A stretch of 64,000 nt of DNA. Source: Marsupella aquatica (Eukaryota; Plantae; Marchantiophyta). Under the pieces are notes generated by a model. That model did no database searches, had not been told where the DNA came from, and worked only from the letters and a program-made list of their open reading frames with translations. Where the stretch lies: NCBI GenBank assembly GCA_973895155.1, contig OZ316892.1, positions 12,402,238 through 12,466,237 of the forward strand. Direction: 5' to 3'. Each line of letters starts with the position of its first letter. The stretch's first letter is position 1. Position numbers and translations under genes: made by a program. Positions 2,325-45,100 of the stretch are shown in pieces.

Positions 2325-3812
2325 CAGTCGCAGAACTCGACTACCTTAACACTTAGCTCCAGCGTCGCTGACTTCGACGCCGAGCTCCCTTATGGTCCAG
2401 ACCTGGATAGGCCATCCGGGGAGGACTTAGCATGGGGAGACTTGTGGCCAATGAGATGTGGCACTGGCGAGGCAAGGGGCCAAGCTGGGGACACAAACTA
2501 AGGACTTGGACTAGCCTATGGCTGGTCGGGTCAAGGGGAAATGGGCCGGGCTCATGGATGGCCGTCCGGACCGTCGGATGGGCTTTGAGTTCTGAGGGCT
2601 TGGAAGTGAGCTCCTCTTGGGCCCAAGGCCAATGGAGTTGACGCCATTGGCAACGGACGCTTGGGGCGCAAGTTATGGCCCGAGCCGGGTTGGGCCGGTC
2701 GGGGGCCCCGAGCGGCGATCAGACTTGAGGGCCTAGGCATGAGCACTGGGTCGGCCCGGTCACTACGGGCTAAGACACTCCGCTTGCGGATGCCTATCAA
2801 GAAAGTTATGGGCGTTGCCAGTTGGTGGTGCGCCCATTATGCGCGATGGGATCCGGGTTGGGGGCCAAATGTTTAGGGACCAAACCTGGTCCGGGGGTGA
2901 CAGGTCTCCAGAAGCATATATGAGGGGAGTGGTGTCTCCCTAAGGGCTAAGGGCGAGCCGAAGTCGTGAGCCGCGGCGGTCGCGACACTAAGGGAAACCG
3001 CCAAACGGAAACGACGATATCTTCCCAACGGGAAGTCCGTTGGAGGACTTCTTAGGTGCATTGGAAAGCTCAGCTGGGTCTAGGGGTGCCATGGGTTCTT
3101 GTGGTTTGCGGGTGTTAGCTCGCCCGTTTACCAAATCCTGCCGAACAGCAGCCAAGCCGCGTTCAACCTCCCATGGGAGCTTGCGTTGGGGAGGCAAGGC
3201 CAAGTAGGTATGGAGGCTGAGTCCCAAGGGCGCTTGGTCCCTAGACCATCGGTGGGGCAAACCGAGAGTCGGTGTTAGAGTCGGGGCCAATCTGGTCCCG
3301 GCGTGTGGAGACAAGCTTGGGACAAGCTTTAGGACAAGCTACGCTATTTGGGCCATGAGCATGTCCTGAGGTCAGGGCGGTCAGTTGGTGATGGATAGGT
3401 ACGAGGGGGAACCCGGGCCGCGCCCAAGGAAGGGGCTGTCTTGGACGGACAGTGGGCGTGGGTTCTGGTTTCGGCTTATGGCATCGGGAGGACCTATCGC
3501 TGACCTATTTACCAACGTCTATTGAGCTTGAGTTAGGATGCTAGACTTGGCGAGTTCTAGATCCTGAAGGGTTACTTACCGAGGTACGTGGTGGCTTGTG
3601 CAGACAGTGAGGGCCGTTGAGTAGCGGTCGTGGAGGAGAGCAAGTGCGGCTTCGTATGGGAGGGGCCGCTGGAGGTGTGGGAGGGGCCGCTGGAGGTGCA
3701 AGAGGCACTAGGGTGCTTGCTCGAGGTATTCCGTGGAGGCGTCCGGGTACCGAGGGCACTTAGGCGTGAGTGTTGGGATTGGTGAGGGCGCTGGGTGGCT
3801 AGGTCCACCACT
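2325..3812. repeat. GC-rich degenerate repeat, copy 1 (uninterrupted; probably TE-derived)
   Basis: Colinear with 5692-6747 plus 16614-16952. Broken Pro/Ser-rich minus-strand frames; no recognisable domain. Confidence 0.85.
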
Positions 3813-5691: not shown

Positions 5692-6747
5692 CAGTCGTGG
5701 AACTCAATTACCTTAACACTTAGCTCCGGCGTCGCTGACTCCGACGTCGAGCTCCCTTATGGTCTAGGCCTGAATAGGCCATCTGGGGAGGACTTAGCAT
5801 GGGGAGACTTGTGGGCAATGAGACGTGGCACTAGCAAAGGCAAGGAGCCAAGCTGGTGACACACACTAAGGACTTAGGCTAGCTGAGAGCTGGTCGGGTC
5901 AAGGGGAAAAGGGGTCGGGCTCAAGGTCGACCGTCCGGACCCTCGGACGGACTTTGAGTTTTGAGGGCTTGAGTGTGAGCGGCGATGAGACCTGAGGGCC
6001 TAGGCATGATCACTGGGTTGGCCCAATCACAACGGGCTAAGGCACTCCGCTTGCGGACGCCTAACGAGGAAGTTATGGGCGTTGCCAATTGGTGGCGCAC
6101 CCAGTATGTGAGATAGGGTCCGAGTTGGGCCCAGAAGTTTAGAGACCAAAGTTGGTCCCGGGGTGGCAGGTCTTCAGAAGTATATATGAGGGGAGTGGTG
6201 TCTCCCTGGGGGCTAAGGGCGAGCCGGAATCGTGAGTCGTGGCGGTCGCGACACTAAGGGAAAAATGTCAAATAGACACGACGATATCTTCCCAACGGGA
6301 AGTCCGTTGGAGAACTTCTTGGGTGCGTTGGAAAGCTCTCAAGGAGCCCTCCTGAGCTCAACTGGGTCTGGGGGCACCATGGGTTCTCGGGGTTGGCGGG
6401 TGTTAGCTCACCCGTTTGCCAAATCTTGCCGAAACAACAGCCAAGTCGTGTTCAGTCTCCCAAGGGAGCTTCCGTTGGGGAGGCAAGGGCAAGTAGGTGT
6501 GGAGGTTGAGTTCCAAGGGTGCTTGGCCCCTAGACCATCAGTGGGGCAAACCGGGAGTTGGTTGCTAGAGCCGGCTCCATTCTGGTCCTCGCGTGTTGAG
6601 ACAAGCCTGGGACAAGCTTTAGGACAAGCTACACTACTTGGGCCATGAGCATGTCTTGGGGTCAAGGCGGTCAATTGGTGATGGATAGGTACGAGGGGGA
6701 ACCCGGGCCGTGCCCAAGGAAGGAGATGTTCTGGACAAACAATGGGC
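5692..6747. repeat. GC-rich degenerate repeat, copy 2, left part (insertion target)
   Basis: Aligns to 2325-~3457. Confidence 0.85.
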
Positions 6748-6923
6748 TGTCGTGACATATAGTATCGTAGCCATAGTGTATCAAAGACATACAAGTCACC
6801 GACAAGGCATTTGTTCAAGCTGCTAGCAACCAACAAGCATAGAAAAAGCCCAATCACATTCACAAGTGCCAAGAAAAAGCAAATGAAGTGGTATGTACGT
6901 AGTGGAGGTGTAAACCTCTGTAT
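6748..6923. repeat. Split repeat A, terminal copy (176 bp)
   Basis: Direct repeat of 7285-7459. Confidence 0.95.
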
Positions 6924-7282
6924 ATAAAAGGCGTAAGAGAAACAATTATACTGAAATCAAATCAAAAACTGGCAGGATGCCAAGATCGGCCAGGAGCATC
7001 TAACGAATCACTGTGTGAATCCCGTGTACAGAACCGACGAGCACTATCTGAGCTCTGTCAACAGCAATTCAAGAAGAACTGAAAAACCCACAAACAAAGA
7101 CATGCCCTAAGTAAACAAAGTCCTAGCATCACACTAACAAGCGCGTTTGCTTCAAGAACGCATGGCATTTGCTATAAGAACATGTCGCTAACTCAAGTAG
7201 TACACTTGCCCTAACTACATACCTAGCGGATATGCGAGGGACATGCCGATGTGCATAAGAGGCACTGTCCCTCGGCATGACA
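6924..7282. repeat. Split repeat B, internal copy (359 bp)
   Basis: Direct repeat of 16251-16609; about 16 substitutions by eye, no indels. Confidence 0.95.
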
Positions 7283-7284
7283 GC

Positions 7285-7459
7285 TGTCATGACATATAGT
7301 ATCATAGCCATAGTGTATCGAAAACATACAAGTCACCGGCAAGGCATTTGTTCAAGCTGCTAGCAACCAACATGCATAGAAAAAGTCCAATTACATTCAC
7401 AAGTGCCAAGAAAAAGCAAATGAAGTGTATGTACGTAGTGGAGGTGTAAACCTCTGTAT
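7285..7459. repeat. Split repeat A, internal copy (175 bp)
   Basis: Direct repeat of 6748-6923; separated from B by the dinucleotide GC. Confidence 0.95.
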
Positions 7460-7465
7460 CCCCCC
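7460..7465 (-). promoter_or_regulatory. Putative plus-strand primer (short polypurine G6 tract)
   Basis: GGGGGG on the sense strand, ~30 nt after the Pol stop and directly abutting internal repeat A. Confidence 0.55.
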
Positions 7466-7509
7466 AGACCACAGCCAAAAGGAGGGCTGAAGAAAATTCA
7501 GGTAGCACG

Positions 7510-7652
7510 TGGAGCACAGGAAGGGCAAAACCATAACCCTTCTGGCACCTGGGTAAGTTCAGGCCGAAGGCAGAAAAGATGGTACCCTCCATTGCAATTG
7601 TCACACAGCAGCATCTGGTCAGCATCATCAATTTGCAAACACACTTTGCAAG
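7510..7652 (-). CDS. PHD finger (C4HC3) at the integrase C-terminus
   Basis: CKVC..MLLCDNCNGGYHLFCLRPELTQVPEGLWFCPSC. Confidence 0.93.
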
Positions 7653-7699
7653 GGTAGTCCACAGGTGGAATCCAAGTGGGATCTAGGTTGGGCAGATGA

Positions 7700-8760
7700 C
7701 AAGGGGCACAATTCTTGGCATTGTCAGCAATTGTGCGCCCATCTGCCCCTTGTAACTCTAGCACTCTAGACGGTCGAATAGCCTTAACCCTGAGAATGGT
7801 ACGACTGGTAGAGGTGTCCAGGGTGTCGTTAGCTTGCCGCTGCAAGTACACAAAATCTCCCACATCAAACTTCCTGACCTTGGGCTGACAAGTGCCCCTC
7901 GTGTGTGTGCATAACGTAGTGTGTCCCTGTGTTGTGCAATGGCCAAATTCTCCATGGCCATGGGCATAACCCTCCTGAATAGGGCAGCCCTCTCAGAGAT
8001 CACATCAGACCAAGTCACAACTGAATCCAAGTCCACCACCTGAAGCATGTGAGCAGCAATAGCAGAAGGTGGAACTGGGTAACGACCAAACAACAAGAAG
8101 TAGGGAGAAAAGTTAGACAATGATGCATGTCTGGACATCCTATACCCCATGGCAATGTAGGGTAAGGCCAGGTCCCAATCCTCCTTGTTTTTGGTGAGGC
8201 AGATCTTCCGGAGGCCCTTCTTGCATGTCTGAACCATGCGCTCTGCCAAGCCATCTGCCTGTGGGTGATCTCGTGATGTCCGACGATGATCAATGAGGGC
8301 CTGATCAAGCAGCTCCTGGAACTCTCCTCTAAACTCTGAGCCCTGGTCAGTGAGACATTCTGCACAAGCTCCAAAGCGGCTGAGAACTTGTTGCAGGAAT
8401 GCCTGGCTGGTGCTACGGGAGGTCTTATCTGGCAATGCCACAAGTTCTATCCACTTGGAGAAATGCTCTATCATGATCATGATGTAGAGATTACTCCAAG
8501 ATGTGAGGGGTAATTCTCCAGCCAAATCACATGACCAACGATAAAACATGCGCTGAATAGGGAGTGAATGAAGTGTGGGTTGCCGAGATGTGAAAGAAGT
8601 TCTTACCCTATCACATTGCTCACACCGGGCAATAACATCTTGAACCTGGCCATGCATGCCTCGCCAATGATAATGGGGGACCAAGAGGCTATAAGTCCTC
8701 TTAATGCCAAAATGACCAAGCTCAGAATGTACCTTACGGATAAGGCCAACCCTCTCATGA
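7700..8760 (-). CDS. DDE integrase with HHCC zinc-binding domain
   Basis: HSELGH..CEQC; catalytic WSCDLAG, LTDQGSEF, GLAERMVQ; SPYFLLFGR. Confidence 0.95.
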
Positions 8761-9059
8761 ATGGGTGGAACCACCACTTCCCTATTTGGCAAGCAGCGCA
8801 CGAGATGATCTCCCTTCCACAAGTAGCGCTTGGACCTTTGCTGAATTTGGTCTCTCTGGGTTGCAGTAACCTGTATGGGATACTCCCCATGCTGCAAAAA
8901 TCTCAGAGTGTCGCTATCCTCCCATATGTCCACCATAGGTTGGTCAACAACATAGCATGGCAGCAAAACAAGATAGGTAGATGCATGAAATGTAGGCAGG
9001 ATGGAAACCTGGTCAAAATCCTGCCGTGCATCTGAGGAATCATCAGAGGCAATCAAAGG

Positions 9060-10400
9060 GCTGCGGGACATAGTGTCAGCATTTTGATGTGTCACACCAA
9101 GCCTATGAATTACCTCAAAATCATACTCCTGGAGTATGAGTGCCCAACGAGCAAGCTTGCCAGTAAGCTTGTCGTTGGTCATCAACCACTTCAAGGGCTG
9201 GTGGTCGGTGTAGAGAATAAACCTGGTCCCATAGAGATAGGGCCTGTAATGTATGATAGCCCACACAACAACAAGGCATTCACCCTCATACGAAGAATAA
9301 TGACTCTCTGCTTGATTGTTGCTCCTAGATGCATAGGCAATGACGTACTCTTTACCTTCCTCATCATGCTGGCCCAGAATGGCACCAATCCCAAGGGCAC
9401 TCCAATCTGTGTGTAGCACAAAGACCTTGCTGAAATCAGGTCTTTTCAGCACCGGGTATTCTGAAAGCTTCTCCTTCAAAGTGGCAAATGCTGCCTCAGC
9501 ATCTGTACTCCATGCCCAAGTCACATTCTTTTTCAACAAAGCATACAATGGGTGTGCAATGGTGCTGAAATCTTTGATGTAGATCCGGTAGTAATTGCAC
9601 AACCCAATAAAACTCCTCAAAGTGTGAACATCGGTAGGAGTGGGCATTTCCAAGATGGATATCACCTTGGCCCAGTGAGCCATGGTTCCATTTGGAAGAA
9701 TGCGGTGCCCAAGGTATACTACTAATCTGACAGCAAATTCACACTTCTTGGGGTGTATCTTGAGGTTCACCTTCTTAAGCCTCATGAATACCTCCTTGAG
9801 GTCAAGTAGATGCTGGTCAAATCCTTTGCTGTGGACCAACACATCATCAATGTAGCATTTCATAAACTCAGCACCTTGAAGAACTTGGTCCATGACTCTT
9901 TGAAAGAATATGGGCGCATTCTTCAAGCCAAATGGCATCACCAACCACTCCCATAGTTGGTTACTATCATGGAAAGCTGTTTTCTTGCGGTCCTTTGCAA
10001 GCAGCAAAATCTGGTTAAAGCCTTGCCTTAGATCCACAAGAGTGAAGATGTTTGAGTCTCCAATGCTGTCAAATAGCTCCTCTGGCCATGGCATGGGGTA
10101 CCTATCCTGGGGTGTGACCAGGTTCAGTGGCCTGTAGTCCCCACACATGCGCTTCTCTGTCCACAATCCACTGGAATCCTTCTTTGCTGGCATCACTATA
10201 GCTGCTGCAAAATTTGATGTAGATGGCTAAATAAGACCAGCTTCATATAACTCTTGGCACCTCTCATCCACCACCTGCCACTCATGCTTACTCAAACGAT
10301 GTCTCCGCCTGAAGATAGGTATTTCATTAGCCAACTCAATGGAGACCTGCATGGTCTTGCACTTACCCAAGTCCTTCATAGAGAAAGCAAACACGGTCTC
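9060..10400 (-). CDS. Reverse transcriptase and RNase H domains
   Basis: RMCGDYRPLN, VDLRQGFNQI, MPFGLKNAP, YIDD (9843-9854), YLGH; RNase H motifs TDWSALGIGAIL, YTDHQPL, NADTMSR. Confidence 0.95.
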
Positions 10401-10809
10401 ATGCTTGAGGAGCAAATTCAGCAGCTGGTCCTTCTGTCTTTTACTCAGGTGGTTGCCCATGATGAATGTGTAGTTGGCAACACTAGGAATAGGACCTGAT
10501 GTACTCGTGCTTGAAGAGCCAAAAGTGCTAGCCTCTCCACTAACCAAGCTGCTAGCATGCTGTTGATAAGGTGATAAGGCCTCTCCAAGGCCTGTTGTAT
10601 CTATTGCTCTGGTCTGATCCACACCATGAAACTCAGAAATAATATCAGCCACGTTACAAGGGACCTCCTCCCCCCCAACACTTGGACTGAAGCGGTGAGT
10701 GTTGAATAGAGGTAAGTGCACTTGGTCTGGATGCCATGTAGCAGCACCATGGAGTGGTAGGGCTGGAACTCCTGATGCTGGATGAATGTACATCTGAAAA
10801 AGGATGCAA

Positions 10810-11760
10810 GTGACCAAAAGCCAAGTGACAGCATTAAGATCCATTACCCTGCCAAGTAAAGCATTCCTGGCCAGCTTGGTGATTTTGGTGTGGCATGTAG
10901 TACCGGGTTGGAAGCCCATAGCCCGTTCTCTCTCCTCAGGACTAGGTTCATCCCATGTACCGGTAGAATGTCGGTAAACCAGGCCAGGACCATCACCCTG
11001 AAAAGCATGTGCACCTGGAAAGGACACAAATGTAGGCCAAGCAGCACGGGGCTGTCCAATGGTATTGGCTGAATACCAAGGTGCTGGCTCTTGCCGTGTA
11101 ACTAGTTGGCAAGAACTGTCAGGATCCAAAATCTGGTCCACTGTGAGGTTAGTGTCCCTGGATGTGTGGTGAATCTGAGCTAACTCCAACAAGGAAGGTG
11201 GTGCAAGGTTAGTCCAAAAGTTACGAAGACGATGTGCATAAGAACCACAGTACACTGCATCAATGAGAAGGGGTGGTCCTAAGTAATGTTGGACCACACT
11301 GAAATCCTCTTTGACCTGTGGACGCTGGTCAAACTGAGATGGAGTATTCTCAATGATATAGCCAACAGCAGGATAAAGGGATTGAGCCCAGGTGAGAATC
11401 TGAACCAATGCTGTGAAAAGGCCAGAACGAGAATCATGCAGTCCAGCATCGTGACCAACAGCTGGAAACCCTTGGCATTCCCAACCAGCTATGATCAAAT
11501 CAAGGGAGCCAAGAAGGGTTAAGTGTTGGTGTTGGACAAGCTGGATATTTGGAGGGAAGAAAGAAAATGCAGACTTCCATGCACTGTGTGGAAACTGTTG
11601 GGGAAATCGCTCTGAAAATTCCAGTAGACGGGATTCAGCCACTTGCCTTGCACCTGGATCAATGTCCACGTAGATGTACTGCTTCACCACCATCCCAGAC
11701 TGTAGAAGAGCTTCCAGGCATGTAGAAATGCCACCAAAAAGCTCAAGCAATGTAAGGCCA
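10810..11760 (-). CDS. C5-cytosine DNA methyltransferase domain, DNMT3-like, embedded in Pol between protease and RT
   Basis: Motif I LLELFGGI; II YVDID; IV DLIIAGWECQGF (catalytic Cys); VI YIIENT; VIII DAVYCGSYAHRLRNFWTNL (cf. DNMT3 AHRARYFWGNL); IX/X EERERAMGFQPGTT..ARNALLGR (cf. DNMT3 EMERVFGFP..ARQRLLGR). Confidence 0.92.
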
Positions 11761-12119
11761 TCCGGAGGAGGAGTCCATGTAACTGGTGCGCTCAAGATTG
11801 GGGCTATTGGTTGTCCATTGTGCTGCCCAAGGTCCTCAAATTTGCGCAATGCAGCCACCAAAGGTCCATGGGCTACTTGGAGCCATTGTACCACCTCTGG
11901 TTGATGATCCACGTTGATGGAAAGTGCTGCTATACGTGCAGCAGCATGTGCAGCAGCCACCTCATCATCATCCTCCTCAATCCAGTCCTGCAATTGGTGG
12001 TTGACATAGGTAGCTGTGTGCACTGCTTTCAAAACACAGTGGTGAGCCATAGGTGTATGAGCACCATGCAAATCAAGTGGAATGTAGCCCAAGTGTGAGC
12101 CATCCGTATGCCAATCAAC

Positions 12120-12480
12120 TCTGTAGTATGCATGCTCATGCCAGTTGTCAATGGTAAAACCTGGTGGGAACAAAGCCTCCTGGCCAATGAGCACATCATA
12201 CGTAGTGGCATTGGTAACCAAACATCTGACTGGGAAATGGAGTTCCTGATCTGTACCTCCATTAAAAGTGAGAGTTAGTAAAGTAGAACTCTCACCCAAC
12301 ACATCCTCCACAGTGCCACTAGCAGGCCGAATGTGCCACTTGGATTGTTGTAAATGATCAGTCAGTAGTCTCATCTTCTTGGCAAACTGAATGCCCAATA
12401 TCACTGGTTGAGCACCTGTGTCTAGCATGATCACCTGAGGAGTGTGACCCTCCAACTTGACCGCTGAATTCCTGTTGTCA
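12120..12480 (-). CDS. Retropepsin (aspartic protease) domain
   Basis: VIMLDTGAQPVI active-site motif (~12414-12422) and YDVLIGQEAL C-terminal motif. Confidence 0.85.
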
Positions 12481-13598
12481 ACAATGGCAATGGTGGTGGA
12501 AACTGAAGTCCTGTCGCTAGGCACCACTTTTGGCAAATGATGAGGTACTTTGTGAAGGGAGTTAGTGTCCACGGTCTTTCCATTCAACAGCATAGTCAGG
12601 AAAGATGGGGCAGCATGACCAGGATCAAGTGTAGCTCTAGTCACACAATCTGCAGCAATACTGTCATCTCCACCATTGGAAATTGGTACTGGGATAGCCA
12701 AACCAATGGAAATATGTAATGGAGAAGAAGAAGGTCCAGTATGTACATGAGATTGGACCTCCAAAACTGGTGTCACAGGGGCTGATGAAGAATGCAGTGA
12801 GCCCTCTAGCGCTTTGATGACAGCTCTAGCATCCAGTTGTAAATCATGGCAACTGAAAAGTGGAGTTGTAAGAATCCTTTGTGCCATACCGGAGGTGAAA
12901 TGCTCAAGCAGCTCAGGAGAAACAACTCCCTGTGAAATGTCAACAGCACCTAGTGGTGGAATGGATGTAGCTGCAGCTCCCTCCCCCCTCGCCAACAAGG
13001 TGCGCTCTTCAGCAAGTGTGAATGGCTGAAAAGATTGGGGCATGACAGCCCGAGCTCCCCTGGCTCTAGTCATAGGATCGGCAACAAGACCATTAGCCTA
13101 TACAATGCGGCGTGTGGGAGCAATGCGGGAGGCTGCACTAGCCTGCTGGTAAGCAAAATAGGAAGGGCAGAATGAATCTAAAAATTTTGCTGTAAGGCCA
13201 GGCTGTGTAGGAGATGACAGCACACACTCACCCATATGAGCATCAAATGGCAAGCCATAGAAAGAGCGGGGTAGAGATGCTGAACTGTCAATGGTGTCTG
13301 GGCCCGGGATGGGTTGCACGTGACCAGCCGGTTGAGAAGGACCAGCAGAGGCACGTGACTTGCCTTTGATGTTGGCAAGTTGGGCACGTAGGGACTCAAC
13401 CTCATGAGTCAGAGACTGAAGTTGAGTTGCCTGTGCATTGTGAGCCTCCTTCTGAGCTGGTTGCTTCTGTTGCTGCTTGGGCAATTTGTTGGCACTGGGT
13501 GCTTTGCCACTGGAAGGAGGAGCAACTGATGCAGTAGGAGCCCTCCTAACTGGTGGGGGAGTGGAAACAGGAGCAGGATGAGTGGCCTGTTGTCGTAG

Positions 13599-14872
13599 CT
13601 ACTTCCTCTCTAGGAATTTGGCAAAACAAACTGCCTCCAAGTGGCCCACTTTCCCGCAAAAATCACAAGACAAGTCCTCAGCAACAATATCACATTCATT
13701 AGCCTTGTGATTGGGGTTACCACAGTAGTTGCAAGATGGCAGCATGAAAGCAGCATGGGCTGGCTTGGTCTTGGAACCATACTGTGGCACACGGGAAGGG
13801 GTGGCCAGTGTAGGGGCAGCAGCCTGGTACCTGGATCGCGGTGGACGCACAATACTGGCCTCATAATGTGCATGGGCCAACTCAAGTTTCTCAGCAGTGT
13901 CATAGACATTGAGCAGGGTGTAGCTGTCTCCAAACTTTGAGAATACTTGATGCAACACTTGCGAATGGAGAGCTGGTGTGCCCTCCAATGCGCGAAGATA
14001 GCAATGAGCAGCTTCCAGGTCAGTGATGCTCTGGGTGTCCTCCTTCAGCTTGAGAAGCCGGCAATACATCATCTTCAAGGTTTCATGCGCTGCCTCACAA
14101 AGGTGGCCAACTGCATGATTTTGTCAGCACTCTTGATTGGGAATTCCAATTGAAAAACCTGCAAAAACTCAGCCACTGGATCAGCAAAGGCAGGAGAATC
14201 AATGGTGGGAGAAATGCCTGATGTAGCCTGTGCCAAGACAATGGGAGTAACTAGCGTAGTGGTAGGAACTGGAGTAGGAGGGGAAGTGGCAGGAGCAGCA
14301 GCATGGGCTGCAATGGCATTCTGTAAGGCCAATTGTGAGGCTGCCGCAATTGCACTGGCATAGGTAGGGTTAGGCAACTGTGTGATAGCAAGCAGCCGTT
14401 GAGAATGCTCCTCATACACATCCAAAGCCTCATGGTGCACAAACCTCGCTAGCTGCTTAAATGCAAAAGCATTTATGAAATTGCTGCCATACTTCAACTC
14501 CAATTCGTATACGACAGTGTAGAAAGTGGATTTGAACTCACGCAAAGAAACAGTGTCTGGTTGCTCGCTGAAGCGCTCAATGCGGCCAGATGAGTGGCTG
14601 ACATCCATGCTGTATGTCGATGAAGCTGGAACAATCACTGATGCAGAAGGAGTAAAGGGCAGAGAAGCGATAGCAGGCTTCGGGGTAGTGGTAAAGCGAC
14701 CGCCAAATGTAGCAGAAGGATTGCGTGGTGTGGGTGTTGCTGCTGTCTGTTGGCGTCGTCGAAATTGCCGAGACTCCAAAGAAATTGGCACCAACGGTCG
14801 TGGATCACTCCGTAAGTGGTACCTGGGTGTCGGTGGTGATGTATTGCTACCTCCTGGCTCGTCTGCTGACAT
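13599..14872 (-). CDS. Gag-like region with two CCHC zinc knuckles (frameshifted)
   Basis: CNYCGNPNHKANEC and CDFCGKVGHLEAVC match CX2CX4HX4C. Confidence 0.85.
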
Positions 14873-16237
14873 ATTGTGTTGCAATACCCGATATACTGAA
14901 AACATGCAAAATGTGTAAACACAAGGAAAAACCGTCACCGTCGAAAAACCATCGGGGAAAAAGGACCCTTAAAACCTCAAATTTAGCCCCCTTCACGTTT
15001 GCCTATGTATATGCCAAATTGACTGTCCGGTGTGTATACACCGGGCCGTATGCAGATGACCTGACGTCGGCGATAGCAAAGGAATATGAGGAAAATGGGC
15101 CCCCTGAAGTGTATACCTCGGGCCCCTATGTGGACCCAAAAACCGAAGGACTGGCCGGCCCCAATGCCCTATGCTGTCATCCCGCGCGCGGTGAATGAGC
15201 GAGAACGACCGAAAATAAAAAGAAAAGGGCCTGAATTAAGTGTATACACTTCGGACAGTCGGCGAAGGGAAAGAAATGGCGGATGTAGGGGGCCCCTCTT
15301 AATGGCACGAGCCCTGCATAGGGCTTCGTGCCCCCTCCTTATGAGCTCCCGAAAAGGGGTTATGAGCTTCCCCCTCCTCTCCTTCAATGTAATGTGGGCC
15401 TCGTGCCCTGGCAAAAGACTCCCGTGTGAGTTGGAATTTAACTCCCCTCCCCTCCTTTAATGCTGCCTCGCTTCCCCCTGGCTTGACAACTTGTGCTCAA
15501 CTTCCCCTCCCCCCTACTTTTAATGCTTCATAGGGCCTCGTGCCCTCTCCCTCCTTGTGCGAAAATCTACTCTCAAGAGGAGGGAGTTTGTACTCCCCCC
15601 CTCTCTTAATGCTGGCAACGGAAGGTCGAGGCTAAAACGAGGCGAGGAGGAGGCTAAAGAGAAACGAGACCCCCCTATGTGAGTAAGGAGGAGCGAAGGG
15701 AGGGCGCGCGGCCCTATGCGTGGCTTTGGGGCATTGATGAGCCCCGCATGTGTATACTCAGGCTACAGGTAGGGCAATGGCAGGATTGGGAGGCAGCTCG
15801 AGATGGCAGTTGTCGAGTAAAGAAAAGGGGTCGCGGCCAGGAAACAGCTCGCAACGGGAGCCGCCTGAACAAAATGGAAAAAGGGGAGAAATTGGCCGGG
15901 AAACACCAAAAAATGGCCTCGCGTATGTCGATCAACAGCAAGTCGCCTCCACTTCATGGCAGTCGATTGGCAGTTGAAAGTAGGTCGTGCTGCGGCGCTG
16001 AAGCAGCAGTTGGCAGCGGCCGGAAACGAAAAACCCTGAAAACAAAGCGCGAAGGAAAAGAGGGACGGGGGGCCTATTTGACTTAAGTGTATATACTTAA
16101 GTGTATACACACAAGCCATAACTTCCACCCCATCGCTCAACGTTTTTCCATAGAAATTGCACCGGCATCAACGGAAAAATGTCAATTGTCTCGAGCAATT
16201 GAGAAGCACAGCGTCTCCGATCTTCTTCCCCTCATCA

Positions 16238-16252
16238 CAGTTCTTCTTGAAT
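16238..16252 (-). promoter_or_regulatory. Putative self-priming primer-binding site
   Basis: Sense ATTCAAGAAGAACTG lies at and just after the end of B. It is the exact reverse complement of sense CAGTTCTTCTTGAAT inside B (7067-7081; one mismatch in the 16394-16408 copy). No TGG-initiated tRNA PBS is present. Confidence 0.7.
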
Positions 16253-16609
16253 AAAAGGCGTAAGAGAAACAATTGTACTGAAATCGAATCAAAAACCGGC
16301 AGGATGCCAAGATCGGTTGGGAGCATCTAACGAATCACTGTGTGAATCCCGTGTACGGAACCGACGAGCACTGTCTGAGCTCTGTCAACAACAATTCAAG
16401 AAAAACTGAAAAACCCACAAACAAAGACATGCCCTAAGTAAACAAAGTCCTAGTGTCACACTAACAAGCGCGTTTTCTTCAAGAACGCCTGGCATTTGCT
16501 ATAAGACCATGTCGCTAACTCAAGTAGTACACTAGCCCTAACTACATACCTAGCGGATATGCGAGGGACATGCCGATGTGCATAAGAGGCACTGTCCCTC
16601 GGCATGACA
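16251..16609. repeat. Split repeat B, terminal copy at the element's 5' end (359 bp)
   Basis: Direct repeat of 6924-7282. Confidence 0.95.
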
Positions 16610-16613
16610 GGGC

Positions 16614-16952
16614 GTGGGTTCTGGTTCAGGCTTATGGCATCAGGAGGATCTATCGCTGACCTACTTACCAATGTCTATTGAGCTTAAGTTAGGATGATAG
16701 ACTTGGGGAGTTCTAGATCCTGAAGGGTTACTTACCGAGACGCTTGGTTGCTTGTGCAGATAGAGAGGACCATTGAGTAGCGGTCGTATTAGAGAGAGCA
16801 AGTGTGGCTTCGTATGGGAGTGGCCGCTGGCGGTGCAAGGGGCACTAGCTAGGTTGCTTGCTCAAGGTATTCCGTGGAGGTGTTTGGGCACCAAGGGCAC
16901 TTAGGCGTGGGTGTTGGGATCGGTGAGGGTGCGGGTGGCAAGGTCCACCACT
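16614..16952. repeat. GC-rich degenerate repeat, copy 2, right part
   Basis: Aligns to ~3458-3812; resumes exactly after the TSD. Confidence 0.85.
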
Positions 16953-17696: not shown

Positions 17697-19589
17697 GTTG
17701 TTCCCCCATCAAATCAATTTGCCTCACCAGCCATGTAAACTCAATTGATTGTCACAACCATGGTGGAACTATTCAACACAAGTAACAAGTCATTCAAGAC
17801 CCTTGTTGAAAGTCATAAACTAAGACTTTTGCTGTTTTTGCTACCCCTGCCATTATTGTGCCCAATGGAACATTCATTGCTGCCAATTTCTCCCTTTCCT
17901 TTGCTCGGCAAAGGCTCGGGCAAAGACTCTCACTGCACAAGCATTCAAAGACATTCCTCAAACATTGGTGAATGGGAGTGGAAAGGATGTAAAACTAGGA
18001 ACTTGGAGTCCATGGTAATCTTCTTTCCAAATTGGGGGGAGGGTGAGATAGGGATCTCAGATCCGCTTCAAGCATCTTGTCCCCGAACAAAAGGCTGATG
18101 TTATTTGGGAAGGCTCTTCCTTTTTCCTCCCTGAATCTCCATTTAGGGCTCTAATGCCAGGTATGTGAATGTGCAGATCTTGGTTTGCAATAGGATCCTT
18201 GCCAGGTTGCCCCTTTGCCTACTTTGCTTCCATTGGCAAATGTTGGGGAGGCCTTGGCACCTGTGAAGTCTACTTGAGACCAGGCCACTCCTCATTTGGG
18301 AGTTGAATAGATACAGTTTTTATACAGAAGATAAACTTCAAATGTGGAGATATGGGCAATTATGCCATACATGAGCTGTTTAGTATCCAATAGTACCACA
18401 GATTTCATTGAATGGTTCTTATCATCACTAAAGAGGGCATTGATGGACATTTAGTCAACCTTCCTAAGTTTGATTCTTTGCTCAAGTTAAGTGCCCAAAT
18501 TCAAATAGCAAATGGTTATTTCAAGCAAAACTACACTCAAAAATACTTCCAGGTATATACCTGATTGACTGCCCTACCTAGCTCTACTTACCATGTCGGA
18601 ATCCTACAAGGAAAAAAGGTATTTGCAGAGCTGTTAAGGAAGAGTTGCAAGGACAATGGGCCCCACTAAGAGTATTCAAAAAAGTCTAGGACACGTTAGG
18701 GATATCTTTACCGAGAGTGGGCCCATCAAGTCTTTCATTGAAAAAAATCCATGGATTAGTACAAACTATATATATACACACATGAAACACAAGGAAAACA
18801 CTCACAAATGGAAGTAATGGAATAAGCCAAATGTTAACTTCATTATGAATGGGATGAAATGTTTGCTTAAGGGTATTGTGACATATAGTGAACCCAAAAC
18901 AAGGCAATACACCAAATATTGTGTGCTTCTAAAATAACGCTTGTCTCCAATTAGCAATAATAGGTACAAATGGAAGCAAGTTTGTCTAAAGTTTCTTACA
19001 TCAATTCAAATGTTGATATGAAATGATGAATAGTTAAATAGATCAGAATTTCAGCAAAATGTATCAAACAGTTTTTTTGTAAATAATGAATAAATTCTTC
19101 CCTCATAGATATATTTATGCCAAAACCAAATTGTTTGCTCCAGAAAAACCAATTTCAGGTCATGAAATCGGTTTTTCCTTGGATTCATTCATTAATCTAC
19201 AAACTCCAACTAAGCTCATGAATTAAAACACCTACTTATGCAAAGAAACAAGGGGGCCCGCGGATTAATTCCCCCAAAAGTGTCAATCTAGAAAATCACA
19301 GAACAAAAACAATTGAGGGTAGTTGGAAGTACTGGTTTGGGGACATGAGTGGCAATGTTGTACTATGCCCAAAAATAATGTCTATCTAGCTATTCACCAA
19401 AAAGATAGAAATCTCAGGGTAGCTTGAAGTTATCTTTTAGGGACGTGGAAAATTTGGTGGCAAGGTTGTACTGTGCCCAAAAAGAATGTCAATCTAGAAA
19501 TCACAGAAAAAAAACAAACATGAGGGTAGCTCGAAGGTATACTTTTGGGATGTGAAAAAATTGGTGGCAAGGTTGTAGAGTGCTGGTCA

Positions 19590-20780
19590 TAGGGTTACAC
19601 AGGCTACTAATCTCATACCAGACCGTAGTAACCCGGACCAAGACTCTAGTAACCCAAACCAGACCCCATTATCCGAAATACCAGTGCCCAGGCACAAAAA
19701 GAAAGTGATGGGGCATGGGGAAATAGCTAACTAAGTATGCAGGGGGGGAAATCGCTATACAGGGTTACACAAGGCTGCTAATCTCATACCAGACCCTAGT
19801 AACCCAAAACAGAGCCCCATTATCAGAAATACTAGTGCCCAGGCACTAAGGGAAAGTGATGGGGCATGGCGACAATACGATACAGGGTTAGTTACACAGG
19901 CTACTAATCTCATACCAAACCCTAGTAACCCAAGCCAGACCCCCATTATAATATCAGTGCTCAGACACGAAGGGAAAGTGATGGAGCAATGCGGCAAATA
20001 GCCATACAGGGTTACACAGGCTACTAATCTCATACCAGACTATAGTAACCCAAACCAGACCCCATTATCCAAAATACCAGTGCCCAGGCACGAAGGGAAA
20101 GTGATGGGGCATGGGAAAAATAACGATACAGGGTTACACAGGCTACTAATCTCATAGCAGACCCTAGTAACCCAAGCCAGACCCCCAAAATACCAGTGCC
20201 CAGGCACAAGTGATGGGGCGATGGGGCAAGTAGCGATACAGGGTTACACAGACTCTAATCTCATACCAGACCCTACTGTAGTAACCCGAGCCAGACCCCC
20301 ATAATCCAAATACCCGTGCCCAGGCACAAAGGGAAAGTGATGGGGCATGGGGCAAATAGCGATACAAGGTTCAAGAGGCTAGTAACCTCATACCAGACCC
20401 TAGTAACCCGGACCAGACTCTACTGTAGTAACCCAAACCAGACCCCCATTATCTGAAATACCAGGCAAATAGCGATAAAGGACTACTAATCTCATACCAG
20501 ACCCGAGTAACCACCAGACTCTACTGTAGTAACCCAAACCAGACCCCCATTATCCGAAATACCAAGCAAATAGCGATACAGGGTTACACTCACTACTAAT
20601 CTCACACCAGACCCGAGTAACCACCAGACTTTCCACCAGACTTTACTGAAGCAACCCAAACTAGACCCCCATTATCACCAGACTCTACTGTACCAACCCA
20701 AACTAGACCCCATTATCCGAAATACCAGTGCCCAGACACGAAGGGAAAGTGATGTGGCAAGGGCAAATAGCGATACCGGA
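19590..20780. repeat. Tandem array, ~125-bp unit, ~9 partly truncated copies, upstream of UBP1
   Basis: Recurrent AGGGTTACACAGGCTACTAATCTCATACCAGACCCTAGTAACCC...CCAGTGCCCAGGCAC...GAAAGTGATGGGGCATGG. Confidence 0.9.
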
Positions 20781-38939: not shown

Positions 38940-40420
38940 AATAAAGTAGGACCTGGCAATGATGGAATTTGTATGTACGAAGGAAAGTTACAACTCAATG
39001 GGTAACTATCTAACGGTGGGATCCTAACAGATAAAAATGCCATTTTCATGAATTTTCTCTGTGCACTGGTACCATTTCGTGAAGCTCTGGCGGGAGTATG
39101 GATGACCACCTAAATCTTTTCATACGCAAGCTTGAATTGCTCAAGCTCAAGCTTTTGAGCTCTCCATTGTTTGAAGGAATCTCTGCAATCATCATCCACT
39201 TCTGATGCCCTCATAGTGAACAAATTTGGTCACTGCCATATCCCTGTGGGCATAAGCTGCAATCCAAAATTGGTGACTGCCATATCCCTTTGGGCGTAAG
39301 CTGCAATCCTTTGAATTGGTGATTACCAGATCCCTTTGGACATAAGCTGCAATCCAAAATTGGTGACTGCCATATTCCTTTGGGCATAAGCTGCAATCCT
39401 TTGAATTGGTGATTGCCATATCCCTTTGGCCATAAGCTGCAATCCTAAAAGCTGACTCTTCACTCTTGAGCTTCTCTCACGCCCTCATACTGAAACAAAT
39501 TGTGATTGTGTGACTGCCGTGTCCTTTGGGCATAAGCTGCAATTAAAAAAACTGGCTCCTCACTTTTGAGCGTCTCTCCCTTTGGGCATTAGCTGCAACT
39601 CTAAAAACTAACTCTTCATTTTTGAGCTTCTCTATGCAGTCATACTGAACAAATTGTAAATGCGCTTACCTGTAGCAGCCATATCCCTTTGGGCATAAGC
39701 TGCAATTCAAAAAGCTGACTCTTCACTTTTGAGCTTCTCTGATGCCCTTTCACTGAACAAATTGTGAATGCTCTAACCTGTAGCAGCTTCAAATGCTTGG
39801 ATTGGTGTTGCCATAACCCTTTGGGCATAAGCTGCAGTCCAAAAAACTCCTCACTCTTGAGTTCTTGGCAGCCTTGTTGCCCATGGGTTGTTTATTGCTG
39901 TTAAATTCTCCAGCAGGAGTGTTATCACAATCATTTGGGTTAATGATTTCTGGAGTATGGGGTGGAGGGTACATTCTCCTTGTCTGTAGTAAATTCCCTT
40001 CCCTTTCTCCACTCTGTACCCTTTCCCTTCTTACCTTTCTGTTTATGTGGGCAATCTGTCAACAAGTCAAGAGTCAATGAAGGTAAATTCCCTTGCGCTT
40101 GGTAGTGATCTTTCAACAAGAACCAACAGTCAATGAAGGCAAATTCCCCTCCCTTGGGATCATGTGGCTTGGTGATGCTCTCTTGCCTTATGCAGAGTGT
40201 CTTCTTGATTGGCATCAGAAAGTCTGTGATATTTTACATTAGATTACAAACCTGAAAACATGACAATGTCATGATTCAAATCTCCCCATTTGCTCTCCAA
40301 TGATCTTGCTCCTCTCTCCTGTGTAGTCTTGGCCTGTGTTAATTGTAGTGTGCCACATTGGAGTCATAACGTCCTTAGAGCATAGGATCACATGTGATCA
40401 GTGGTAGCAAGGATGATTCT
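38940..40420. mobile_element. Possible degraded PIF/Harbinger element (transposase relic on +, Myb/NAM-associated ORF relic on -)
   Basis: + strand ~38985-39055 resembles YxMGYYLADGIYP..F after frameshifts. - strand shows GEFAFIDCWFLLKD and KQPMGNKAAK, typical of PIF ORF1. No TIRs located. Confidence 0.4.
39225..39865. repeat. Tandem/interspersed repeat, ~42-bp core, ~9 copies
   Basis: Recurrent GCCATATCCCTTTGGGCATAAGCTGCAATCC. Confidence 0.9.
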
Positions 40421-41129: not shown

Positions 41130-41765
41130 GGGAGCCCACAATGCCCTGGTTCTATTCAAACTACCAAGGGTAAGGGGTTCTGAGCATGAGAGCCCTTCAA
41201 GCCCTGGTTACTATAACTTACCAAGGGTCAGGGGTTCTGAGCTCGAGAGCCCTGAATGCCCTGGTACTATACAAATGACTAAGGGTCAGGAGTTGTGAGC
41301 ATGAGAGCCCCGGAAGCCCTGGTTACCATACAAATTACCAAGGGTCAGGGGTTCTTAGCATGAGAGCCCTTAAAGCCCTGGTTACTATACAAATGAGTAA
41401 GGGTGAGGAGTTCTGAGCATCAGAGCCCTGGTTACCATACAAATTACCAAGGGTCAGGGGTTCTGAGCATGATAGCCCTGAAAGCCCTGGTTACCATACA
41501 AATTACCAGGAGTCAGGGGTTCTGAGCATGAGAGCCCTTAGAGCCCTGGTTACTATACAAATTACCAAGGGTCAGGTGTTCTGAGCATAAGGGCCCTGAA
41601 AGCCCTGGAAACTATACAAATGACTAAGGGTCAGGAGTTGTGAGCATGAGAGCCCTTCAAGCCCTGGTTACTACACAAATTACCAAGGGTCAGGGGTTCT
41701 GAGCATGAGAACCCACAAAGCCCTGGTTAGTACACAAATGACCCAGGGTCAAGGGTTCTAGCTGC
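41130..41765. repeat. Tandem array, ~60-bp unit x~11, upstream of TIC40 (longer related units at 40560-41130)
   Basis: Recurrent AGCCCTGGTTACTATACAAATTACCAAGGGTCAGGGGTTCTGAGCATGAGAGCCC. Confidence 0.92.
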
Positions 41766-42166: not shown

Positions 42167-45100
42167 ATGGCGGCATCATCGGCATTGGGTGGTAATGTAG
42201 CAGCCGTGTGCAGCGGCAGCGGCAGTAGCATCAGCAGCAGCAGCAGCTTGAACGAGGGCGTGCAGGGAGTTCTACCGAGCCGAGGTTTCGGCCAGCAGCC
42301 GATAGTGCGGGCAAGAGGTTTGAGGCTTCGGCGGCATCCGCAGCTCCAGCTAAGGCCGCACCCGGCTTCCACGGGACCGCAGCTCTCGAGAATCTCTGCA
42401 AGAGCCCGCGGGCAGGAGGCGAGCAAGGGCCGACAAAACGGTGTGTTTTTCAGAGCTCATGAAATGGTGAAACGGGAGGATGCAATATTATGCGATTGAA
42501 TGTTCACAGTAGGGCGTCTCAAAGTGGCAAAGTTCCCCGCCGTGAACTCGTGAGTTATGGGTTACAGACACAATCCTTATGGACATCGAAATTAGTGTTC
42601 CACAAGTTTTTGTTCTTAACAGACATCCATAAGACATGACCTCGTGAGTTATCGGTTACAGACACGATCCTGATGGACATGGAAATTAATGTTTCGTTTG
42701 TTCTTAACAGACATCCATAAGACATGGCCTTGGGAGTTATGGGTTACACACACTATCCTTATGGACATCAAAATTAGTGTTATGTAACGTTTTGTTCCTA
42801 ATAGACATCCATAGGACATGGCCGTCAGGAAGATTCATAGGCTGGGCACAAAAATACAAAAAATTACTTAATTTCACCTACGACAAGAATAGTTACGGTC
42901 AGATGTTAAGCCCAGAACCTTTTTGCTGCATTGCTCGAGGATTGAGTCGCCGTAGTGCCCCTGAATTTAATTTATATATACATATTTCCTTTCTTCATTG
43001 CTGTCCACCACAATTGTCTCTCTCTCGCTCCCTCGTTCCCACAAGATCTAAACGCTTCGGAATCACAGGATAGCAGATTATGACTCTTTTGAACAAAGGA
43101 ATTAGAAGGTAAACTGGGAAGGGCTATGATTCTATGTGCCAGCCCGGTACCTCTGCGTGAGTACTATAAAGTGAGTGCTGTCTTTCTTCGTCTGTGATTT
43201 GCCTTGATGATCATGGATTTGTTTTCCTGAGAGTCTACTCCAACACCAGGTGTCTGTCATGTTTCGAGTAGACTGGAGCACATACTTTTTGTCTCCATAT
43301 GACCGTGATACGGCTGTGAGTCTATCAGTTTGAGCAATTATCGGAGTATCACTTTAGACTTTTCCGTATAACCGTCTATTGGGCTGCACGCAATTCCACA
43401 TCAGGACTCTAGTGCAGAGTTGGTTTGCTGCAGGTAGGTTCCGGAGCTCTAGAGCGTGCCCGTGTGTGAAGCCCCGTCCCAGGTTCTTGGGTCAGAACGT
43501 AGTAACTAATGTTTTTTGTGCGTCTGTTCGCAAAACTAATGTCACGGAAAATAACAGAGAGTGTGACCGCGAGCAACTTTTCGAGATTCAAGCACTTACG
43601 ACGTAGATTTATGAACTAGAAAACACAAAACACACCCTAATTCTGACTGCGAGCAGAATTTGTTCAGATTTAGTGGAATTTGATGTTTGATAGAAAACTT
43701 ATTGGCAGCAAAGAATTTCTATCGAGAATATCTTTCGTCGGCTTTGAACGAGGCATGAAAATCTAGAGAATTGACATCTCATCCTGTTGAGTAAACTCGG
43801 TTTTCCTGGAGATGAGATTCCTATAACTTGATCACTTAAGTCAGCATTGGTTACCTAGGGCACTACCAAGGAAATAGGGTCTAGGAGTCGTGTATAGCGC
43901 TTTAGAAGAGGTATAAGTATACTGATAAAATACATGTAATGGGCTATATCATTTATATTCACTCGTGTCTCATCATCGATGATACTTTTCATAATTTCTA
44001 TCGGTACGACTATAGAGGCAAAGGAGGAATGAATTTTGTTCATAGATCGTCAGATTCTTGTTACTCAGCTGTTGCTTTTCACTAACGGAGAAAGAGGGAA
44101 ATGGACAAGAAATCAATCTGGGAGCCTGACAAAATTTACCCGGAGTCGGTCCTGCTTATGAATCATCGTGCAAGAGTACTTATTCAAACCAAACTTCAGC
44201 TCCTTGTAGAGAGTAGAGGAACATTTCTTAAAACTGCTAAGTCTAGGCAAGCTGTTCACCTGGTTAAGATCTGTAGAATCGGTTGGATGGAAAGTGCCTT
44301 AATTATATTCCAGGCAGTTTACTGGAGCACTTGCGAAACTTTGTAAAGATAGATTCATCTCAAATTTTCGGCAAGAGACAATCGACCCGATTGTGTACAG
44401 CCACTTATAATTTAAGATTGTTCAGTAGTTCAGATTAAATCACTGAGAGCTTGGAGTCAATCTTCTGTCCAATGGCCTAGGCTTCTCGTCTGCAAGAAAT
44501 GAGGTTCAGGTTTGAGCAGAACTTCTTTTAAACCCTACATGATGAAATTGCTTCCGCAATTTGCTTGTCAGTCTGATTTTTCTGTTGTGTGGTTTTTGTA
44601 TTACTATTTCCAGAGAAGGAGGCACAGTTGGAGACAATAGCTGCAGAGCCAGAAGCCACTGTAGGAAATGTCGGAGTAGACCCTGCAGTCCAATCTGGCT
44701 ACATGTAAGTCAAGGTTAATGAATATTATCATGAAAGTTCGTGAGTTAATGGGTCCTGGCACCTTGGAAGGTTGCTCTTTAATGTTTGATGTTACTAACT
44801 TGGCATGACAATGACATTAATGATCTGTGCTTGATTCTCGTAGATATTTGCAGACAAATATTTGTCTTGGCCATACTTTGTTTTAAGGTGTAGAAGATTT
44901 TAGTCAAAGTTGTGGACTTCAGGTACACTTTGTAAGCTTATATTTTGTGTTTACTTGCAGAGGATCACCTCTTATGTGGATTGGAGTTGGCGTAGGAATC
45001 ACATATGTCTTTAGATGGGTACGGACGTTGTAAGCCATGCATTTGGTTTCTCTATGTAATTTTCTGCATGAAGTTGTTTACCAGATGCACCACGGTTGGG

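Follow-up and report, generated by a model that had tools for sequence, protein, structure and literature searches.

A decayed Ty3/gypsy element in the liverwort Marsupella aquatica whose family carries a DNMT3-like methyltransferase and may integrate through a circle

The window analyzed here, a stretch of 64,000 nucleotides from a contig of Marsupella aquatica (OZ316892.1), contains a Ty3/gypsy element on its minus strand at 6748..16609 (9,862 bp, with the ends TGTCATG...CACGACA). The element is decayed and has the layout A-coding-B-A-B, in which A and B are repeats. Its limits are supported by a comparison with contigs, where the empty-site joint 6743>16610 is found in runs X2 and X5. Along the minus strand the coding part consists of a gag with a CCHC zinc knuckle (13098..14872), an aspartic protease with the DTG motif (12171..12461, Pfam PF13975, E 8.4e-5), a DNMT3-like C5-cytosine methyltransferase domain (10782..11795, 338 residues and free of stops), a reverse transcriptase (RT) with YIDD (9699..10160, Pfam RVT_1, E 5.5e-27), RNase H (9123..9509, Pfam RT_RNaseH, E 4.3e-37), a DDE integrase made up of an H2C2 finger and an rve core (8001..8762, Pfam PF17921, E 8.8e-14, and PF00665, E 1.7e-13) and a C-terminal PHD finger (7501..7680, Pfam PHD, E 2.1e-12). 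The gag-PR-RT-RH-INT order, the DDE integrase, the TG...CA ends and the short target duplication are those of Ty3/gypsy elements, but the pair of full terminal LTRs is missing and A-coding-B-A-B stands in its place. The Pfam scan of six frames gave no tyrosine recombinase, which a DIRS or Ngaro element should have, and did give the rve integrase. No chromodomain was matched in the Pfam scan of the window frames; the element has the PHD finger.

This copy is dead. Its gag is broken by a frameshift near 14086 and by stops at 13601-13599 and 13100-13098, the open-reading-frame translation has an in-frame TAG at 10227..10229 between the methyltransferase and the RT core, and the integrase tail has a minus-strand frameshift near 7894. 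With three stops, all of them TAG, and two frameshifts the copy cannot make the polyprotein, a state that the earlier note on this DNA had missed. Its statement that the methyltransferase lies in frame between protease and RT holds only in part: the stop-free minus-strand frame 13097-10230 contains the aspartic protease followed by the methyltransferase domain, and RT is in the same frame, but past the TAG that precedes its core. The paired repeats of the copy differ at 24 of 534 sites.

Translation of the methyltransferase domain (minus strand, 11795-10782) gives the main C5-methyltransferase motifs in the canonical order I-II-IV-VI-VIII-IX-X, as had been claimed. They are LLELFGG for motif I (~11750), YVDID for motif II, GWECQG for motif IV (with the Cys codon at 11477-11475), ENT for motif VI (11351), HRLRNFW for motif VIII (~11231, with Arg-x-Arg present), ERERAMGF for motif IX (~10934) and LLGR for motif X (~10850). 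Since the motifs run from I to X and are not permuted into VI-X followed by I-V, identity with DRM is ruled out. The proposed check against Pfam PF00145 gave a divided answer, as the window domain stays below the cut-off of 22 bits (18.2 bits, E 0.0018) while relatives exceed it, e.g. P0012 with 36.6 bits. Among solved structures the top sequence matches of the domain are DNMT3A (E 1.3e-4). An AlphaFold model of the domain (pLDDT 92.9, pTM 0.91) was submitted to Foldseek, which ranked DNMT3A/3B first (E 1.6e-18), and VIA-align placed the model on DNMT3A/3B with Z 29.5 and an rmsd of 2.5 over 270 aligned residues, compared to Z 25.3 for the best bacterial enzyme and Z 24.7 for M.HhaI. The predicted structure thus confirms the domain as a DNMT3-fold C5-methyltransferase, and together with the motif order it bears out the earlier reading of a DNMT3-like enzyme that is not a circularly permuted DRM. 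The Pro-Cys of motif IV is absent and Glu-Cys is found there, which weakens the label of a textbook motif and leaves the fold assignment intact. The Atlas label for the domain is C5 methylase, where the first cluster is mostly streptophyte and the next two are mostly phage. The window domain also deviates at the near-invariant residues 26 and 111, where 126 and 157 of 161 relatives have the family residue, and given these changes the enzyme of this particular copy may be dead.

For the family as a whole the picture is different from that of the window copy. A HMMER search of cluster representatives gave 240 proteins at E <= 1e-30 (best 150 of 240 listed), and motifs were counted in 161 of 172 proteins, those spanning motifs IV to VIII. 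These 161 stand at 30-40% identity and retain the SAM-binding motifs I and II. The catalytic Cys of motif IV is conserved in all 161, as is the Glu of motif VI, and the motif VIII arginines are kept in 158 and 157 of them. The dipeptide at motif IV is Glu-Cys in 91 and Pro-Cys in 58, mixed in both clades, so the GWEC that the earlier note had seen together with ENT is an old family trait and not a sign of decay.

A pattern-based metagenome scan gave at least 514 confirmed stretches among at least 599 pattern matches, of which the best 80 were retained. In these related loci the order gag-PR-DNMT-RT-RH-INT-PHD is found wherever neighbors are covered, so the domain sits at the same place in sister copies. 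Unbroken frames exist in relatives for gag-PR-DNMT (P0014), DNMT-RT-RH (P0013) and PR-DNMT-RT-RH-INT (P0032). In runs X1 and X2 there are 10,788 and 22,188 contigs that align along the region, DNMT included, which is not a copy number, and in both runs the contig cover over DNMT is in the same range as over RT. Comparing the window to 80 natural copies gives a median pN of 0.214 and pS of 0.707 for DNMT, while the corresponding medians are 0.130 and 0.762 for RT, 0.126 and 0.599 for RNase H and 0.129 and 0.693 for the integrase. The domain is therefore not evolving neutrally. It is under purifying selection that is somewhat weaker than for RT, with pS near saturation and the ratios accordingly rough. 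Among close copies dN/dS is 0.28-0.34 for DNMT and 0.18-0.55 for RT, RNase H and integrase, values that are inflated by decay (79 of 81 DNMT copies have a stop). The protease was left out of this comparison because its query was out of frame; for the same reason only the positions of RNase H, integrase and PHD in the related loci were used, and not their identities. Taken together, the family is an abundant jumping gene with a DNMT3-like enzyme in its polyprotein.

Protein searches found relatives at 57-73% identity, among them named records of Calypogeia fissa and Sphagnum magellanicum; the named matches in S. troendelagicum and Marchantia are more distant. The search with RT-RH-INT (best 120 of 2203) named Calypogeia at up to 81% and Klebsormidium nitens at 45-54%, as well as Closterium, Riccia and Tetraselmis. 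Three Closterium records have DNMT upstream of RT; the ORFs of the three K. nitens records that came up hold none. A FastTree phylogeny was built from the 146 sequences that span both RT and RNase H, with the root placed on other Ty3 records. It joins the window element to Calypogeia and to three unnamed proteins with support 1.0, and this clade is sister to one with K. nitens P0227 and P0236 (SH-like 0.92, in a tree whose deep nodes are weak). A second tree of 164 DNMT domains, all from elements, splits 21 PR-DNMT-RT elements from 102 RH-DNMT-INT elements with no exception, the other 41 being untyped, and the supports of the two groups are 0.996 and 0.936. Such a clean split suggests either one move within Pol or two captures. 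The sister clade (e.g. P0002-P0011) has its DNMT between RNase H and integrase, and RT-RH-DNMT-INT-PHD is seen in 42 of 172 proteins. Bryophytes also have a second, distant lineage (P0025, P0026, P0209, P0250): Sphagnum troendelagicum has a DNMT at 31% with Pro-Cys, Marchantia has a partial one, and Calypogeia has a second RT clade. Two peptide patterns each found no relatives in viral contigs or prokaryote genomes, which are weak negatives. Judging from the named liverwort and moss records, the family appears to range into land plants.

The ends of the element are as unusual as its coding part. Repeat comparison places the first copy of A at 16251..16609 (359 bp, 95.6% identical to the second copy at 6924..7282), and the two copies of B at 7285..7459 (175 bp, ending in ...GACA) and 6748..6923, all on the minus strand. 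The same A-coding-B-A-B layout is found at L003, L011, L013, L029, L039, L058, L059, L069 and L079. The window element is flanked by a 4-bp target site duplication, GCCC, at 16610..16613 (5' copy) and 6744..6747 (3' copy), identified from empty-site contigs and from the uninterrupted host repeat, where GCCC is single-copy near 3455. Of the 12 distinct insertions for which both flanks are available, 7 show an exact 4-bp duplication (window, L003, L013, L039, L044, L049 and L053), three of four bases agree at L029, L058 and L059, and none is clear at L011 and L079. The 5' leader (14900-16250) is CG-rich, with an o/e of 0.78 compared to 0.28 in the coding part, and has little in common with sister copies.

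The sequence that follows the first A can pair with a segment of A itself located 110-165 bases upstream. In the window this pairs the predicted primer-binding site on the 3' boundary of A (16238..16252) with a predicted self-primer inside A (16394..16408), the likely RNA 5' end, through a 15-bp helix that is present in both the MFE and the centroid fold. A self-primer with at least 11 of 12 Watson-Crick matches is found in 17 of 26 distinct insertions, compared to 2 of 104 control searches. The 186-nt primer region as a whole folds no better than shuffles (z -0.32); what suggests a self-primer is its position and not its fold energy. Two primer positions differ between the window and the L003-type family, whose repeats are otherwise unalignable, and the binding site carries the corresponding change for each; in sister copies the binding site is retained while the bases that follow diverge (loose ends at 6924). 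A site past the LTR that is complementary to the RNA's own 5' end, as predicted here, is what defines self-priming of the Tf1/Tcn1 type. Directly before B lies a G-run (7460..7465), the predicted polypurine tract, which is present in all 10 full elements and is variable in length among sister copies. In each of these 10 elements A stops at the primer site and B begins at the G-run.

The two internal joints are also informative. At B|A there is a palindrome, CATGACA-GC-TGTCATG (7276..7291, spacer 7284-7283), which we predict to be an integrase site. In all 16 distinct insertions, counted from 22 rows minus 6 duplicates, the joint is built from the two ends of the element separated by 2 nt. The breakpoints in the flanks of independent insertions lie at 7285 and 7282, on either side of this spacer. 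Departures from CAGCTG are seen at 17 of 64 sites and are all C>T or G>A. This high C>T was considered as a sign of self-methylation and rejected, since the rate matches the background. Across codon joints the element is poor in CG, with an o/e of 0.23 vs 0.67 in host exons, and between paired repeats 46% of CHG and 38% of CG sites are different. The A|B joint (6924|6923 in the window) is a predicted scar of end joining. Among the 10 full elements it is exact in 7 and has deletions in 3, compared to 0.045 indels expected per segment of this size, and it is shifted in the further partial copies L021, L054, L060 and L065. For the window's own family, no indel is seen at this joint among the matches listed. 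The mirror layout A-B-A-internal-B occurs in 0 of 26 distinct insertions, 24 of which have at least 190 bases of flank. Forms with A-internal-B (L032, L044, L049, L053) were considered as a sign of one-LTR circles, a reading we dropped because L013 (A-int-B-A-B) and L032 (A-int-B) share both flanks and recombination or assembly collapse suffices. Some loci are more complex: at L043 two family copies are adjacent or nested, L038:9282-9967 is a second reversed copy, and L028:4988-5278 and L068:4925-5049 are reversed or inverted pieces of A.

Our overall reading, which we hold to be somewhat probable, is that the window contains a dead copy of an element whose working copies methylate their own cDNA in the particle and integrate through a circle. 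The first part, a gag-PR-DNMT-RT-RH-INT-PHD polyprotein with conserved catalytic residues under purifying selection, is practically certain. The following three steps form a chain that we consider likely from the anatomy of the ends. The RNA would start inside A and, as in Tf1, serve as its own primer at the site that follows A, and the plus strand would begin at the G-tract before B. These two primers would give a linear cDNA of the form B.A-internal-B.A, so that the real LTR would be B+A with the integrase site inside it. The blunt ends of this cDNA would have no TG/CA and would be joined to each other (A|B), either before insertion or after it, in which case the joining would be the repair of a break. 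A staggered cut by the DDE integrase, 2 nt wide, would then open the upstream CA-GC-TG palindrome, and insertion with a 4-bp duplication would give exactly A-internal-B-A-B. The genomic form would be a circular permutation of the cDNA, with the left B moved to the right end, which requires both the joining of ends and the cut at the upstream palindrome. Of this last step only the 4-bp duplication is directly shown, and from the layout we infer the cut itself.

The weakest step is the fifth, toward which we lean slightly. Here the particle would contain free DNMT next to the new cDNA, and the enzyme would methylate this DNA, probably at CG as SymbioDIRS-Dnmt3 does in yeast, so that the element would enter the genome already marked. 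The depletion of CG fits self-methylation, yet methylation by the host predicts it too, as it does the C>T changes in the palindrome. Other points also count against our own model. Of the 10 full elements 7 have an exact A|B joint, DNMT changes faster than RT, RNase H and integrase, and KnitGypsy-Dnmt3 was inactive in yeast. Additionally, a cut at the downstream palindrome should give A-B-A-internal-B, and the absence of this form in 26 insertions is unexplained by the circle model. In its general form, we find it likely that a gypsy clade of the green lineage, reaching into liverworts and mosses, always integrates via a joined two-LTR circle. That it does so and also has its own enzyme active on the cDNA is possible, though we would rather doubt the combination. 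A bolder guess, which we consider improbable, is that DNMT chooses between the two identical palindromes by protecting the one that is finished first, so that only the productive one would be cut.

One alternative is that the enzyme acts at or after insertion and, together with the PHD-tipped integrase, marks the target locus or the fresh copy and not the free cDNA. The polyprotein ends in a PHD finger in both architectures, the DNMT of the sister clade lies directly before the integrase (102 of 164 domains), and the window copy is itself inserted in another repeat. In the window's clade, however, DNMT is placed between PR and RT, far from the integrase, and the protease would likely release it. 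We regard this reading as unlikely. No better placed is a replication route like that of DIRS/Ngaro elements, in which an RNA would run from A1 into B2, the ends would be restored from the internal B-A, and A|B would simply be inherited. The repeat layout is indeed the same as in DIRS elements as these are described in the available text of PMC5890265, and an A|B joint that is exact in 7 of 10 full elements is what inheritance would give. This route leaves unexplained why A ends at the self-primer site, why B starts at the G-tract and why there are private deletions at the A|B joint. It also has to accommodate a DDE integrase with 4-bp duplications and no tyrosine recombinase, and the integrase would still have to open a circle at the palindrome.

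Slightly less likely again is that the domain has been retained for binding nucleic acid or for particle structure, with little or no methyl transfer. Several facts point in this direction: the Glu that 91 of 161 relatives have in place of Pro ahead of the catalytic Cys, the faster evolution of DNMT compared to RT, and the inactivity in yeast of the related KnitGypsy-Dnmt3 (PMC5890265, in the portion available). Against it, the Cys of motif IV and the Glu of motif VI are invariant, the motif VIII arginines are nearly so and motifs I and II are retained, while the canonical Pro-Cys is still found in 58 of 161 and is mixed with Glu-Cys in both clades. Human DNMT3B likewise failed in the same yeast test, according to the same portion of PMC5890265. 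Finally, a chance capture or nested fragment drifting neutrally in this one copy, as its decay and its PF00145 score below threshold might suggest, is refuted by the position of DNMT in related loci, the continuous ORFs and conserved residues of relatives, a cover over DNMT like that over RT in runs X1 and X2, and a pN far below pS.

Returning to methylation of the cDNA and integration through a circle as the preferred reading, the closest known system is KnitGypsy-Dnmt3 of Klebsormidium nitens (de Mendoza et al. 2018, PMC5890265). As far as the available text of this paper goes, it has Gypsy domains, a non-permuted Dnmt3-like domain in Pol, DIRS-like A-coding-B-A-B repeats and purifying selection, all like the window element. 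Thus the kind itself is published and the window element is a further member. The authors assign its acquisition to the K. nitens lineage, and its domain gave no methylation in yeast, a result they call inconclusive. Differences are that KnitGypsy-Dnmt3 comes from one alga whereas the close relatives of the window element are in liverworts and mosses, and that the paper's text description, on which our comparison is based, says nothing, in its available part, of a self-primer, a G-tract, an integrase site inside the element or a route through a circle. Common descent would be compatible with the K. nitens sister clade in the RT tree (0.92, FastTree), but the records in question are without DNMT. 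In the same source SymbioDIRS-Dnmt3 of Symbiodinium, which methylates CG de novo in yeast, also has a Dnmt3 in Pol and A-coding-B-A-B repeats; it uses a tyrosine recombinase, unlike the window element with its DDE integrase, PHD finger and 4-bp duplications. For the priming, Tf1/Sushi and Tcn1 elements have an RNA 5' end that pairs just past the LTR, with no tRNA, as we predict here, and Tf1 does so with 11 bases; they have ordinary TG...CA LTR pairs, and Tcn1 has chromodomains, neither of which is found in the window element (PMC7175516 and PMC6317226, available parts). EpiLTRs are LTR elements that combine a chromatin reader with a cytosine DNMT (bioRxiv 10.64898/2026.05.21.726589, available text). 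They are related to DNMT4, with DAM and a chromodomain, and are a separate acquisition per their authors, whereas the window element has a DNMT3-like enzyme and a PHD finger; the text does mention 'streptophytes (Gypsy-DNMT3)'.

The earlier note did not know DNMT-bearing elements in land plants. This stands insofar as the literature searched, which mostly does not cover subscription papers, holds no description of DNMT-carrying gypsy elements in land plants and no account of a circle-integration route for such elements, although the kind itself was known from the available text of PMC5890265. The name 'KnitGypsy' was not found beyond that paper in the literature searched, the available parts of PMC6453930, PMC6317226, PMC8557442, PMC9861306 and bioRxiv 2021.11.30.470311 have nothing on such elements in land plants, and 'PHD' and 'methyltransferase' have 0 matches in what is available of the plant LTR survey (PMC6317226). 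Two later papers go no further, in their available text, than the word 'streptophytes'. We also did not find in print the relatives in Calypogeia, Sphagnum, Marchantia and Closterium, nor the sister clade with DNMT between RNase H and integrase. The wider host range adds modestly to what is known. What is chiefly new is the anatomy of the ends, with self-primer, G-tract, internal palindrome and 4-bp duplication, and this is the part for specialists to test.

Whether two-LTR circles are real precursors of integration is an old argument in retrovirology, and the role of the foamy-virus joint, which is formed from two cDNA ends, is debated. In vitro, foamy-virus integrase cuts the palindromic LTR-LTR joint after CA, leaving 2-nt 5' overhangs, and the available text argues for two-LTR circles as integration precursors (PMC1180852). 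The B|A site of the window resembles this joint, being a palindrome with a predicted cut at CA on both strands and 2-nt 5' overhangs. Unlike the foamy-virus joint, the palindrome of the window element would be part of the LTR itself, and from its genomic layout one would expect this route to be used every time. Such a layout is hardly possible without the joining of cDNA ends and the cutting of the internal palindrome, which makes the question of the circle as precursor directly testable. It also raises the puzzle of why only one of two identical palindromes is used. Given the split repeats, the self-primer and the internal integrase site, all of which the earlier note had missed, its remark on 'circle control' becomes its most interesting lead. 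As for the function of the enzyme, the kind has so far come from one alga with an enzyme failing in yeast (PMC5890265, available part); the relatives in liverworts and peat mosses and the 240 protein clusters (E < 1e-30) offer natural domains and culturable hosts with which it could be settled.

The surroundings of the element are also of some interest. It is inserted in another repeat of very high cover (window 2325-3812, 5692-6743 and 16614-16952), an uninterrupted copy of which is found at a distance of 3.3 kb. Runs X1 and X2 also contain a joint 16824>6748, which points to a second insertion of the family ~210 bp away in the same repeat, and a protease fragment of a related element is found on the plus strand at 1641-1811 (72% at the DNA level). 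Farther away are two intron-rich host genes on the plus strand, for which the best cluster is mostly streptophyte. The first encodes an RRM protein (21.7-26.2 kb), which presumably resembles plant UBP1, and the second a UBA...UBX protein (35.5-38.0 kb). Tandem arrays are located at 19349-20717 (units of ~107-122 bp), 39226-39633 (45-56 bp), 41143-41759 (59 bp units) and 42547-42823 (94 bp units).
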